DNA of 64,000 nt from Octopus sinensis (lineage: Eukaryota): the NCBI RefSeq assembly GCF_006345805.1, contig NC_043005.1:88102001-88166000 (forward strand). The letters are read 5' to 3'. How positions within the stretch are numbered: the stretch's first letter is position 1; each line of letters starts with the position of its first letter. The notes below the pieces were generated by a model that was not told the DNA's origin, searched no databases, and was given only the letters and a program-made list of their open reading frames with translations. Below, one piece after another: positions 2,763 to 62,030 of this stretch. Both the position numbers and the translations under genes were made by a program.

Positions 2763-5700
2763 TCATACCAGCTCGCCGCCTTCCTAGAAGACACTTGCTC
2801 AAGGTACTACACAGGGGAACTGAACCCAGAACCATGTGGTTGGGAAGCAAGCTTCTTACCACACAGCCATGTCTGTGCCTATATCGGAAATGGAACTCAG
2901 AACGTAATAAATGCCGCTTAGCATTTTGCCCGGCGTGCTAACTATTCTGCCAGCTCACTGAAGTTGAGTATCAGTATGCTCTTCACTGAGAACCCCGGAA
3001 CAAACTTACATAAATTTTGTGACTGTCCAGATCTTCATGAATACTTTTGTGTACAGTTGCTACGCCAACTTCAAACTGTATCTTTATTGTCTTTATAGAT
3101 ACACAACAGCCTTCATCCAGATAATTGCGAATTTTCTCAACATTGCTCTCATCTTCCCACGTCCCACTCCCTCCCACTCCTCCTATCGTCTCTCACCTCC
3201 TCTCCACCAAACTTGAATTTCTTGTATAATTGAAAAACAAGTTAAACCATCAGAATTCAGGAGCATTTCATGAGTTTCTGTCACGTTTTTCCCAGTGGGA
3301 TACAAAACTTCATTATCGAATATCAAGCTTCCAAACGTCCCGGCTACATTTTGCAAACTCGTCACCAGTGACAAGCAGTTTTTTATAAGATCTGCTTCAA
3401 AGAGCTGTTATAGTTGTCTCCTTCGATCTGGAATAAGAAAAGTTAGCAGGTCAGCTTAATAGATCTGTTGACAGTTATGGTTGCCTCTCATAAAAAAATG
3501 CTCAAAAATTCTGCAATCCACCTCGTGTATGTGTGTGTGTGCGAGAGTGTACATTTATACGTATATATGTATGTATGTATGTATGTATGTATGTATGTAT
3601 GTATGTATGTATGTATGCATGTATGTATATGGATGGATGGATGGATACGATGATGATGTGTGACTGCATGCTAATTTTATGCTAAGATTTTAGTTACTTC
3701 AACGTCATTTTATGACATTTTAATTGACATGACCAACAGATTTATTTGTGTACTTGTGTGTGTGTGTGTGTGTGTGTGTGTGTTGTGTGTGTGTGTAGTG
3801 AGAGAGAGATACATATTAACACACACATGCACACATAATTACACACACAAATGCAAGGCACGCACACACACACTAACACACACACCCAAACGCACACACA
3901 CAACACACACACATGCACATACACATTCACACCTATACACAAGTACACACGCATACATACATACGTAAATCCATATATATATATAATATATATATATATA
4001 TATATATATATAATATATATATATATATATATATATATATATATAATATATATATATTATATATATTATATATTCCACACAACACTTCTTAAACAAAGCT
4101 GTGTAGATAGATAGAAATATATACATACACATGAACATTACCTATACATACACATACACACACGCACACACACTCACACACACACACACACATACACATA
4201 TATTATTTACATACATATATAATATATACATATATAAGAGACAGCAAACCCAACATAAAGTCAGATAAGAGGAAAAAACTTTTGATAAGCATAACAAATG
4301 CGCAACCGGTAAAAAGAACTTTCACCTAATTAAATTACTTAAATTACTTAAATTACTTAAATTATTTTGTCAGTATTTTCTTCATTTCCTTTTTTTATAT
4401 ATCACAACTCGTGTTCCACATCTCCTTTTTTAAATATATATTATATATATATATATATATATATAATATATATATATATATATATAATATATATATAGAG
4501 AGAGAGAGAGAGAGAGAGGAGAGAGAAAGAATCTTGCATACATACCATTCTGCCTAAAAAATGGATCTACAACTTCAATATCCCTACATATTTCACATCT
4601 ATTTTCTTTCCTCCATCTCACTCTCTATTTTGTATCCTATCTAAATTAACCATTACTTAACCATCCTCTCACACCATCTCCGATGAAGGGATACAATTAA
4701 TAAATATCATGGAAACATCTGTAAGACCTTCTATCTATAAACGTTCTAATATCTACACAGCCTTGTTTTTTTATCTCATTCCGCAAAAAATTCTTATATA
4801 TATATGTCCCTACTTTCGAAACGCGGAGTATATAAAACAGGGGACAACTGATGAAGGGAATGTTCTTTATGTTGTCTGTCTCGTTTCTTTGTTTCTTTCG
4901 TTATTCGACAAAAAAATTCGTATTCTATATCTTTGTTTTTTTATGTTCTCGTTTCTCGTTTTGTCTACGTTTTTTTTTATGTCCTGTACCCATATATGCA
5001 TGTATATATACATATAGATGTAGGTATGCACATATATGTATGTATATATGCAGATATTTATATTCTATTTACACACACACACGTGTGTGTGTGTGTGTGT
5101 ACACATAATAGATCTCCACGTACACATGTACATACATAGATATATGTATTATATAGACAGACATATACATATATTCATATATATATGTTTATATACATAT
5201 GTGTGCGTGTATATATATATACATTCATATATATATATAATCTACATATCTATGTACTTTGGGTGTTATTAAAATTTTCGCCAGTGCTATAAAGAGTTTG
5301 CAAATATTCAATAAACCTAAGTGAATTTGATTGATAGCTAATTCTAGTGAGATTATGAAATATTAAGAGACGTTCTCTTGCAAGAAAAACACTGGCAAAC
5401 AACATTTCCACTCATTTAGATTCCGTTTAGATTTCTTACACGCCGAGTTATATGAATATATATTATATATATATTGTATATGTGTGTGTGTGCAAGTATA
5501 CATATATATATGCATATAAACATATAAATATGTATATATAAATATAATATATATATATATATATACAAACATACATATATACTTATATATACACGCATAT
5601 ATACTTATATATATGTATATATGCACATACATATATGCACTTATATATATATATGTATGTATGTATGCACTTATATATATATATATATATATGCACTAAT

Positions 5701-6637
5701 ATATACTCAAATATACACATACATATATATGTATATATATTTATACACATATAATCGTGTATTTATATATGTAGAGGTACATATATACGTATGTATATTT
5801 ATATATATATATATATATGTGTGTGTGTGTGTGTGTGTTTTTATATACATATATATATATATATATATATATATAATGTATGTATGTATTTATGTATGTA
5901 TGTATGTATATATATACTTTCATATATATACATATATGTATGCATATTTGCACACGTCTATAAGTGTATAAATATCCATGTGTGCGTACATATACGTTAA
6001 TATATTTATAATACGCATGTATATATGTAAATATGTATACATACATACATATGCGTGTATGTATTTACATGGACACACACGCATATGTATACACATATAT
6101 GTATGCATGTATGTCTATATACGCATGTTTGTATGTATGTATGTATATGTATGTATGTATGTATGTATGTGTGTATGTATGTATGTATGCATGTATGTAT
6201 GTATGCATGTATGTATGTGTGTGTGTGTGTGTGTGTATACGTATGTATGTATATTCAGTTACTATCAGACTCGATTTTCATTTCCCTTGCCGCCAGAGTT
6301 AAATGACTTGCCAGTTGTTAACCTTGCCAAACACACACCTACGCATGTGCACACGCAAGCGCATCGTTCATCTCCCTTAAGGGCCGGAAAGAATTTTCTC
6401 TTTTTATTTTTTCTATTTACTGTTCCAATCACTTTATCCTGCAACTTCATTCTATTCTCAAATATTTTTGCCGAGGTTAATCTCCTCTAAACTTTATTGC
6501 ATGGTGCTTTTGTTCATTATTTTCTTTTCTCGTCATTTTACCCTCAAATTTGTTTCCATTCTAACGGGATTTTGTTATTACATGTATGTATGTTCATGGA
6601 ACAACAATTTATTATTCATTATTATTATTATTATCAT

Positions 6638-7194
6638 TGAGTGAGAGAGCAGTTCATGCCATCAAAGTGACACTGGGGTAAAATATACGAAGCCCTGTAT
6701 CCCCATCATAACTACCTGTCTGATAAGAGTACACTAGGCACATGCATCACAATAACATGTGAGCGACATGGTGATCTCATATCAAGATAAACAGCACATG
6801 ACCTTGCAGATGGGGACCAGTTAGAATTTTCTTCTGGTTGAGTAATCCATCCCGCTAAAAATGTCCCTGAATAAGGATTTTTAAGGATGTTGAACGAAAC
6901 ACCCATGTTTCCAGAGGTGAATTATTCACACCCCAAAGAACCCCTCTCAACACATGGCTATTTTGCTCCCCCACTACTTCTGCTCGTGGTCAGAGATGCA
7001 CATATCGTCAGCCACTAAGGGACATGCTCAACTGGTTAAGGTCAAACAACTGACAAGCAAATCTGTGGTATTGAGCAGAATATTTGCTGTAGCCCATCTT
7101 TTATACCAAGACAAATCAATGTACATGATAACACTTCCAATCAATTAAGATCAGAAGCCACGAGAGTCACTGCCTGGTACTGCATCAGGGCATT
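6638..7194 (-). mobile_element. ~555-bp non-coding element embedded in (TTA)n, copy 1
   Basis: Highly similar to 7419-7972, 44711-45191, 55458-56013 and the inverted copy at 14390-14843. Both ends abut TTA repeats. No recognisable coding content. Strand is inferred from truncation pattern and LINE polarity. Confidence 0.8.
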
Positions 7195-60425: not shown

Positions 60426-61068
60426 GTTATTATTATTATTATTATTATTATTATTATTATTATTATTATTATGAAGACAGTGAAATGGCAGAATCATTAG
60501 AGTGCTTAACAGCATTTCTTCTGATTCTTTATATTCTGAGTTCAAATGCCGCTGAGGTCAACTTTCCTTGTCATACTTCAGAGTTAAGTTCTGGGGTCGA
60601 TATGATCACTCTGTCTAAAGTTGCAGGCCTTGTACCTAAATTTGAAACCACCAACACCATCATCAACATTGCCATCAGAATCATCATCATGCTTTGCTCC
60701 TTCCTTCAACTTCGTTTCTATTTCTGCCAAGTGACTTCTCAATACCTAGGGCAAATAAACTCACTGTATGCATTGATAAACACGCCCGATTGTTTATTTA
60801 AAAACTGAAATAATGTTATGTAAAAAAATGTTTCTTAACATTTCCCAGTCAGTAAATTATCCAGTAGCTCTGAGCTTTCAAAGATGCCTTCATGGAAGGT
60901 TATCCTTCTCACAGTGATAATGCTCGTCTTATGACCATATGCTTGGCTTTTGCTTTGTATTCCTACAAATTGACTCAAAGTCTCACCCAGAGATCTTAAG
61001 AGACAACAAATTAAAAGTTCAAGTTGGTGTTATTTTTGCTTTTACACAGTATTGCTCTAGAGAATATC

Positions 61069-62030
61069 TGTCAAAGAATAAGGTAACCACTTACAATGGA
61101 GAGACAGCACGCAGCACAGGGGAGCATACAGATGGACATTGGCGAGAACTCAAAGAGGAGAAATGTTCGTCAGTGCTCTACCAATATGTTCAAGTAGAAC
61201 ATAGAGGCTCGGTTAATAACATAGAGGTTAAGGTATTATCAACGCATAAAACTGATTCGATACTCAGACAGATTACAAAGGTTACACACATAGCAATAGA
61301 TAGACCGAACCTCAGCAGGAAACACAAGCAGAAAAATAACATCCACCACCACACCATACAACACGACAGCTAAAGACAGAAGGAAGAAAAATAGATACAA
61401 ACAGTATAATACACACAGTAAATAAATATGGACATACCTATACAAGAAATAGAGATAAATAGATAAACAAAAACAGAAGTTGTATAAAGGCGTTATGAAA
61501 GTGACATGGATACAAACAACCTAGTGAGTGAACCCATATACACTCACAAACACATATACAGTAATTTCACAAACGCCCACAACAACATCAACAACGCGAC
61601 CAACGACAACAGCAACAACGGCAAGAACAACTACTACTACTACTACTACTACTACTACTAATACTATCAAGATAGCAACATTGTGGGCGAACACACAAAC
61701 ACAAAGAGGTACAGGTATAGTACCAAAAATCGTGGTCAAGGGCAACGGAAGCAACGGGGAAGGAGAAGGGGTAAGGGGTGGGCCATAGTACTACTAAGAA
61801 CAAAGTCTATAACATGCAAAACACATTGATATGCGTACGCGCATGCACGCACACACGCACACACGCACACACATACACACACATACACAAATACAGACGC
61901 AAACGCATGCGCATATAAGGATACACATCACAGAAGAACAGAATGGACTAAGCGGAGCAAGAGCACAGATGAGGGCGGAAAGTGTCGCTGAAGAGGTCAC
62001 AGACGTGTGACGAAAGATTTCCGGACAATG
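61069..62030 (+). mobile_element. Penelope-like element 3' part: GIY-YIG remnant, then a microsatellite-rich UTR ending in a hammerhead
   Basis: YNGETARS..EH...HW..LKE..SSVLYQ..H...KVL...RQITK..I..RPNLSRK at 61069-61330; hammerhead at 61983-62027 on the same strand. Confidence 0.65.
61983..62027 (+). ncRNA. Minimal type-I hammerhead ribozyme motif (intact core)
   Basis: TGTCG-CTGAAGA-G-GTCACA(gacg)TGTGAC-GAAA-GATT-TC-CGGACA: perfect 6-bp stem II and a UUC cleavage triplet. Confidence 0.7.

Follow-up and report, generated by a model that had tools for sequence, protein, structure and literature searches.

Hammerhead ribozymes of Penelope-like elements (PLEs) have been known in large numbers since 2014 (Cervera and de la Pena, PMC4209133). 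The role of the hammerhead in endonuclease-bearing PLEs is stated to be unclear (PMC8557442). For an active PLE of Anolis it has been reported that hammerhead mutants still insert in vitro and that no RNA reads end at the site (PMC11167929). Penelope expansions in cephalopods have been noted in a study whose consulted sections do not mention hammerheads (PMC8967140). The window analysed here is a stretch of 64,000 nucleotides from Octopus sinensis (GCF_006345805.1, contig NC_043005.1, positions 88,102,001 to 88,166,000; handle G000:C9:88102001-88166000), with 36 % GC and rich in microsatellites, in a genome of 2.72 Gb. An initial annotation had read nine minimal type-I hammerhead motifs from its letters, dispersed over several unrelated short repeat families, and had attributed them to a population of ribozyme elements mobilised by PLEs. 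For the association itself it drew on established knowledge, and the massive scale is published as well (PMC4209133). We consider it probable that all nine motifs represent hammerhead folds located close to the 3' ends, the pseudo-long terminal repeats (pseudo-LTRs), of eight high-copy families, five shown and three likely to be PLEs, and that their copies likely derive from RNA left uncut at the hammerhead.

Hammerhead folds of the window and their families

All nine motifs were found again in the window sequence, at the positions and with the order of parts initially assigned (Table 1). They belong to eight families: A (25846, 17876), B (23835), C (13089), D (22828), E (38603), F (41375), G (61983) and H (4279). 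Each motif had many near-identical relatives in the genome (best 40 places scored per query, out of 331-3392 first-look candidates). The view that several unrelated families are involved was upheld by these eight, except that 17876 and 25846 are members of the same one (79 % over 112 nt) and the pseudo-LTR of 23835 is related to theirs. In 74 unselected stretches of the genome (739.8 kb), the eight families gave 34 matches of at least 35 nt, or 46 per Mb, which extrapolates to roughly 1.2e5 copies genome-wide, a rough figure from a small sample with inverted partners counted separately. The very large population proposed from one motif per 8 kb was thereby supported in order of magnitude (about 1e5), but the density itself is a local excess, the window holding 140 per Mb, about three times the genome sample. 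Family A was the largest in this sample (12 of 34 copies).

Matches were also collected with a hammerhead descriptor that allows at most one core mismatch, and dinucleotide shuffles, block-wise for the window, served as controls. The window gave 6 matches against 0.73 +- 0.89 in 30 shuffles, only three of which belong to the nine motifs. The remaining three were judged to be chance: 32134 lies within the 3' untranslated region (UTR) of another retroelement, and 39538 and 40029 lie in a 493-bp satellite, with a weak, G-U-rich stem I and no G-C at 10.1. In 599.8 kb of unselected genome (60 stretches of 10 kb) there were 25 matches, where 8 shuffles averaged 5.9; with a palindromic stem III as a requirement the figures were 19 and 0.4. 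The excess over dinucleotide-shuffled sequence, the check proposed initially, was thus found in the window as well as in unselected genome. Hammerhead models were without a match among the 150 of 227 Rfam rows listed for the window; only microsatellite-driven miRNA matches stood there. The genome sample further contained at least eight hammerheads of other families, with a canonical or near-canonical core and a palindromic stem III, that are absent from the window families.

A perfect CUGANGA 5' core, initially ascribed to the motifs in general, was present in only three of the nine copies (22828, 23835, 61983). Among the six deviating copies, two had decayed individually, 13089 at C3 and in stem II, 38603 at U4 and in stems I and III. 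The other four are explained by changes of the whole family: no A6 in 17876 and 25846, U4C in 41375, and U3, A8 and A13C in 4279. At the level of families the core is canonical in B, C, D, E and G (73 of 99 copies in C, 15 of 21 in E; A6 kept in 46 of 47 in B), whereas A, F (U4C in 27 of 34 copies) and H deviate family-wide. Core counts for B, F and G were taken from tighter patterns, looser ones having caught unrelated sequence. Stems I and II differ between the families and nevertheless pair in all of them, as had been claimed, with a weak stem I in D and H. Likewise, a short or palindromic stem III and a non-G at position 17 were found in all families, and the extra purine after the core, noted for several copies, was seen in A, B, C and G only. 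The pair 10.1-11.1 is G-C in A, B, C, E, G and H, A-U in F and, at the base of stem II, U-U in D. Family D has in addition a long loop 2, a palindromic stem III and a stem I core of 2 bp, F a 3-bp stem II and a long stem I, and G a 6-bp stem II and a bulged stem I.

In family A, position 6 was occupied by U in 89 and by C in 5 of 94 copies, by A in none. Positions 3, 4, 5, 8 and 9 were kept in 88-94 of the 94 copies, position 7 took all four letters, and G stood at position 17 once. The window copy around 25846 (approximately 25784-25932) is a short copy of a putatively Neptune-type PLE pseudo-LTR. The related family B copy is accompanied by an inverted, more diverged partial copy at 24006-24146.

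The motif at 4279, initially described as heavily decayed, turned out to belong to a young family: the 40 scored places match it at 91-100 %, mostly 97-100 %. U3 together with A8 occurred in 22 of 22 copies and C13 in 23 of 24 pattern matches. The H motif combines this U3-A8 covariation and A13C with a 4-bp stem II, a 6-nt palindromic stem III and a weak stem I. The window copy spans about 4232-4433 and ends in a (TA)n tract. An older H subfamily with a canonical core was not encountered among the loci examined.

Association with Penelope-like open reading frames

In five of the eight families (A, C, F, G and H; six of the nine motifs) the hammerhead is preceded on its own strand by a PLE open reading frame (ORF). 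As these hammerheads stand directly behind PLE ORFs, the five families are PLE 3' ends, i.e., pseudo-LTRs. Reverse transcriptase (RT) and C-terminal GIY-YIG nuclease were both recognised in A and H, RT with a nuclease identified by eye in C, and nuclease remnants in F and G. According to the alignments, read by eye, the families end at a fixed point about 45-150 nt past the hammerhead, mostly against (TA)n, and their 5' side is variable. The idea of PLE-mobilised ribozyme elements was therefore right in tying type-I folds to PLEs, but the motifs are mostly the 3' ends of PLEs and not separate elements.

Family A provided the most complete picture. Its nuclease query returned 14,803 first-look candidates, and in 29 of the best 30 loci, which were fetched, the U6 hammerhead lay 0.9-1.2 kb downstream of the GIY-YIG stretch. 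These 30 stretches were 99.1 % identical to each other, a value biased upward by the choice of best matches; thus the loss of A6 did not stop the spread of the family. Three loci (L341, L342, L344) are complete units of pseudo-LTR, ORF and pseudo-LTR with a hammerhead at both ends and open frames of 835-1009 codons. Direct pseudo-LTR repeats around the ORF were seen in family A only (these three, L440 and L443). A 620-nt pyrimidine-rich leader lies between the upstream pseudo-LTR and the first ATG (L341:1360-1985) and could contain an intron of the kind known from other PLEs. The A ORF matched Pfam RVT_1 above the cut-off and GIY-YIG weakly.

In family H, RT and GIY-YIG preceded the motif on the same strand in L400, L403, L394 and L395, the last with an open nuclease frame (Pfam 31 bits, cut-off 22.6). 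A 35-nt tail was present in 7 of 19 readable H copies and, by eye, on one member only in four of four inverted pairs. A CX2-5CxxC linker separates RT and nuclease in the ORFs of both A and H. From the by-eye resemblance of linker and nuclease to published rows, without a tree, both families appear to be Neptune-type as opposed to Nematis, and H is best described as the 3' end of a young, putatively Neptune-type PLE.

The hammerheads of F follow a GIY-YIG remnant in L196 and L195. The remnant upstream of the G hammerhead in the window matched a better-kept copy in L213 (tblastn E 1e-31) and was by itself without a Pfam match; the same order of remnant and hammerhead was repeated in L152, L158, L174, L231 and L074. 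The nuclease near L213/L214 and L231, met in the search for partners of families B, D and E, belongs to G. Apart from this, the stretch 61920-62100 shares 94 % identity, including its flanks, with L152 (C9:88997994), about 830 kb away on the same contig, a likeness that suggests a segmental duplication. The window copy of G is cut directly after the hammerhead by another fragment without a Pfam match, which we take to resemble the start of a pogo/Tigger transposase.

The C ORF comprises RT and a nuclease-like part and, judged by eye and without a tree, lacks a cysteine linker before the nuclease, as in the Penelope/Poseidon clade. About 30 nt past its stop codon a tRNA-like module of 75 nt was found. 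Judged by patterns for the two boxes, 21 of 27 heads have an A box and 22 a B box. Scored on a profile built from 27 tRNAs of the same genome, the heads reached a median of 10 bits, which none of 1000 shuffles attained, and the best single match among these tRNAs was Arg(TCT), by a small margin. Neither Rfam nor ARAGORN called the head a tRNA, and Rfam also recognised no hammerhead on a C copy. The head lay downstream of the RT on the same strand in 15 of 30 C RT loci, the others breaking off earlier. Among further long copies, five ended before the stop codon and the other 15 all run on into the head, which is therefore integral to the element.

Short C copies had sharp starts. Among 35 copies collected with the head as query, 23 started within 12 nt of the first base of the head, 4 at fold-back junctions and 8 further upstream; with the tail as query, 14 of 19 copies with an intact head started within the same distance (3 and 8 copies with internal starts, respectively, had been set aside). 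Runs of T4 were absent in eight of nine copies, which is consistent with transcription by RNA polymerase III (Pol III) but weak. Short A copies, devoid of a tRNA head, started at -97 to -85 from the cut site in 28 of 32 matches of their own query, at a motif that we presume to resemble a Pol II initiator. Most likely, sharp starts of this kind mark transcription starts inside the pseudo-LTR. That the start in C is also where a module with A and B boxes begins favours Pol III without proving it. In the window, the C copy lies between two copies of a 10-nt sequence in direct orientation (13309-13318 and 13022-13031), which we interpret as a target-site duplication.

Table 1. Features of the window, and hammerheads of other families at genomic loci (L numbers)
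Feature	Position	Strand	Basis
Family H hammerhead-like motif	4279-4316	+	sequence
Family C hammerhead	13089-13134	-	sequence
Family C short copy: 21 nt of PLE 3' UTR, tRNA-like head, (AAT)n, hammerhead tail	13032-13308	-	alignments
tRNA-like head (A and B boxes), a predicted internal promoter for Pol III	13213-13287	-	box patterns, tRNA profile
Diverged, older copy of the family A hammerhead with C at both position 4 and position 6	17876-17911	-	alignment
Family D hammerhead	22827-22918	-	sequence
Family B minimal hammerhead, canonical core	23835-23869	-	sequence
Family A minimal hammerhead, A6U	25846-25881	+	sequence
Family E hammerhead	38598-38647	+	sequence
Family F hammerhead	41375-41424	+	sequence
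Decayed GIY-YIG-type endonuclease end of a PLE, 622 nt upstream of the G hammerhead	61077-61349	+	tblastn
Family G minimal hammerhead	61983-62027	+	sequence
Hammerheads of other families	L052:9055, L080:5066, L053:1959, L083:627, L084:2379, L055:6241, L036:7321, L071:2083, L349:9037		descriptor

Cut or uncut template

According to the reading preferred here, short copies would be reverse transcripts that begin at the 3' priming site of the element and end where transcription had started within the pseudo-LTR. The captured tRNA-like Pol III promoter would set this start in family C, whose short copies would thus behave as a short interspersed element (SINE). The template was likely RNA that had not been cut at the hammerhead. 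Of 80 incidental copies, in a count in which the two A references share some of their copies, just 2 have their start 5 nt or less from the cut site. The full-length A copies were judged from 23 long copies and L341: all five that hold the upstream pseudo-LTR extend at least 480 nt past its cut site, two were unjudgeable, and the rest are truncated in the ORF or before the fetched stretch. In the young families A and H cleavage may be weak or absent and the fold may be kept mainly as a structural signal; their core changes are predicted to cripple self-cutting. The published data on core variants are graded: U3-A8 is active, a natural A6C hammerhead slow (<0.1 per min) and a U-U at 10.1 tolerated, and A6U and A13C are not listed in the core-variation section of that paper (PMC3088659). 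A U3-A8 core has been described in Schistosoma PLEs (PMC4209133).

Several observations weigh against this reading. No ORF link was found for families B, D and E in 30, 24 and 24 loci searched, and the C endonuclease was without a Pfam match and was assigned by eye. Sharp 5' ends are not special to C, as the control family A has them without a tRNA head, and a short palindrome just 5' of the C head could itself cause the fold-back. The folding energies of monomers were no better than those of shuffles (z -1.5 to 0.5), as is expected for minimal hammerheads. Outside the search anchor, the core of 52 diverged A copies was 92 % identical to that of the young form, compared with 66-69 % for the 30-nt flanks, a contrast weakened by the pyrimidine-rich, indel-prone nature of these flanks; such core conservation, together with a free position 7 and a non-G at position 17, is the pattern expected from selection for catalysis. 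Finally, a circular template formed by re-ligation would likewise yield copies with an intact hammerhead at either end.

The last two points belong to the alternative that survives best, namely that the hammerheads, including the U6 and the U3-A8/A13C forms, cleave in vivo as dimers or with the help of proteins and that ligated circles are reverse-transcribed. Since re-ligated circles would give the same copies, with intact hammerheads in both pseudo-LTRs, cleavage stays alive as an explanation, though we regard it as the less probable one. The conservation of the A core across subfamilies and the palindromic stem III of all families speak for it, as do the known activity of the U3-A8 covariation, the tolerable slowness of core variants (PMC3088659, PMC4209133) and the protein-assisted hammerhead of the Anolis PLE (PMC11167929). 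It is opposed by the scarcity of copies starting at the cut site and by the rarity of tandem monomer arrays: the copies of the window are all single, and one direct tandem pair, 269 nt apart, was found among 30 B loci. In one predicted fold of the A monomer, moreover, the U at position 6 enables a pairing of positions 4-7 with the palindrome of stem III that would prevent dimers, and PLE hammerheads are slow even with a canonical core (PMC4209133).

The uncut-template reading can be taken further. The A6U and the A13C/U3-A8 families may keep their fold under selection and spread all the same, so that the hammerhead would act as a structural handle for the retrotransposition machinery and not as an enzyme, and a third family may have captured a tRNA promoter into its pseudo-LTR, shed its own SINE and show the birth of ribozyme SINEs such as Schistosoma SM-alpha. 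This proposal is put forward tentatively.

The initial annotation favoured short copies as independent, non-autonomous families, retrozyme- or SINE-like, that borrow PLE enzymes. Most copies are indeed about 200-300 nt long with sharp 5' ends, the head of C would supply an internal promoter retained in every short copy, and the missing ORF link of B, D and E would fit as well. But the ends of A, C, F, G and H stand directly behind PLE ORFs, and short copies can therefore derive from the transcripts of such masters. The copies are, furthermore, scattered as monomers or as inverted pairs, whereas retrozymes are defined by tandem units: an opposite-strand second copy was present in 16 of 30 C loci, and second copies in C, D and H loci were nearly all inverted. 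Independent elements are for these reasons an unlikely explanation. A reading of the motifs as products of chance or as relics long dead, with an unselected fold, is very improbable and, for A-G, already largely refuted: the descriptor yields about 10 chance matches per Mb, three of the six strict window matches look like chance and H combines a poor stem I with three core changes, but palindromic matches far exceeded the shuffles, the motif is a family-wide feature at a fixed element position with different stems that pair in each family, and an H-type motif occurred in 0 of 5000 shuffles of 620 nt.

Surroundings of the motifs and comparison with known systems

Exon-like stretches of a membrane transporter gene extend over 42114-54938 (+), with an MFS_1 match (E 2.6e-5) for 49897-50130; we assume the gene to be SLC22-like. 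Its introns or their vicinity probably harbour several of the hammerhead copies. Five decayed, (TTA)n-flanked ORFs of non-LTR retroelements, presumably Dong/R4-like, were found on the reverse strand (9419-9982, 30507-31870, 42707-44300, 57349-58499 and 59068-60426), one with RVT_1 and zf-RVT matches; such elements have broken up the (AAT)n tract of family C as well (e.g., L313). The 493-bp satellite occupies 39070-40472 as a tandem repeat of 2.9 copies, 98 % alike, with a diverged array in L038. Each unit contains a hammerhead-like arrangement with C at position 6 (39538, 40029), weak in its stems and judged to be chance; a motif of this sort in a tandem unit would, however, match how retrozymes are defined. 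A direct duplication of 630 nt (97 % identity, 20611-21242 and 22170-22796) ends beside the D copy.

As the association with PLEs and its scale are already published, the interest lies in what goes beyond the initial annotation, the fixed core changes and the tRNA-like head. Neither a family-wide A6U or A13C nor a tRNA head in a PLE pseudo-LTR, nor a description of these cephalopod-type hammerheads, was met in the literature covered, a scope without Lunse 2017, Ferbeyre 1998 and Repbase/Dfam, so that absence is not established. Family A, young, without A6 and the largest in the sample, forms a natural matched pair with its canonical relative B, to which H is added, for the question whether a PLE needs a working ribozyme. 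Successful spread without a canonical core would mean either that a working ribozyme is not needed or that the known catalytic core has to be extended. Scans that demand a canonical core overlook the commonest family of the genome sample. Family C unites in one element a head of the Pol III type and a hammerhead with an autonomous parent that could be identified.

The closest counterpart are the minimal type-I hammerheads of PLEs (PMC4209133), which share the position in the pseudo-LTR, the short or palindromic stem III, in four of the families the extra base between 9 and 10.1, the U3-A8 variant and the occurrence of thousands of dispersed single motifs from truncated PLEs; molluscan examples (Lottia, Crassostrea) are given in the supplement. 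In contrast to the 2,000-9,000 strict motifs per genome reported there, about 1e5 were extrapolated here under other counting rules, and the sections of that study considered contain no family-wide loss of A6, no A13C and no cephalopod. The endonuclease-bearing PLEs of the Neptune clade (Craig et al. 2021, PMC8557442) are alike in RT, cysteine linker, C-terminal GIY-YIG, (TA)n targets, an inverted 5'-truncated partner and a 3' tail of 30-40 nt at one end, and A and H fit this scheme. However, canonical hammerheads are described as universal there outside Naiad and Chlamys, whereas those of A and H are non-canonical.

Schistosoma SM-alpha and Sj-alpha (reviewed in PMC6765202) also place a Pol III-type promoter before a hammerhead in a short non-coding retroelement. 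The C module differs in being the integral 3' end of a PLE coding for RT and nuclease, with the autonomous parent in view and the use of Pol III predicted, and tandem repeats there are opposed to monomers or inverted pairs here. Animal non-LTR retrozymes (PMC7229834; bioRxiv 10.64898/2026.07.22.740005) are likewise short hammerhead units from PLE pseudo-LTRs, but by definition tandem and circular-RNA-making, unlike the dispersed single or inverted copies of the octopus. Poseidon PAc of Anolis (Frangieh et al. 2024, PMC11167929) differs by its canonical, protein-assisted core, which is changed in two young families here. It shares internal priming near the 3' end and insertion from uncut RNA, as we infer for the present families, and the full-length A copies that run past the cut site agree with the insertion by its hammerhead mutants.

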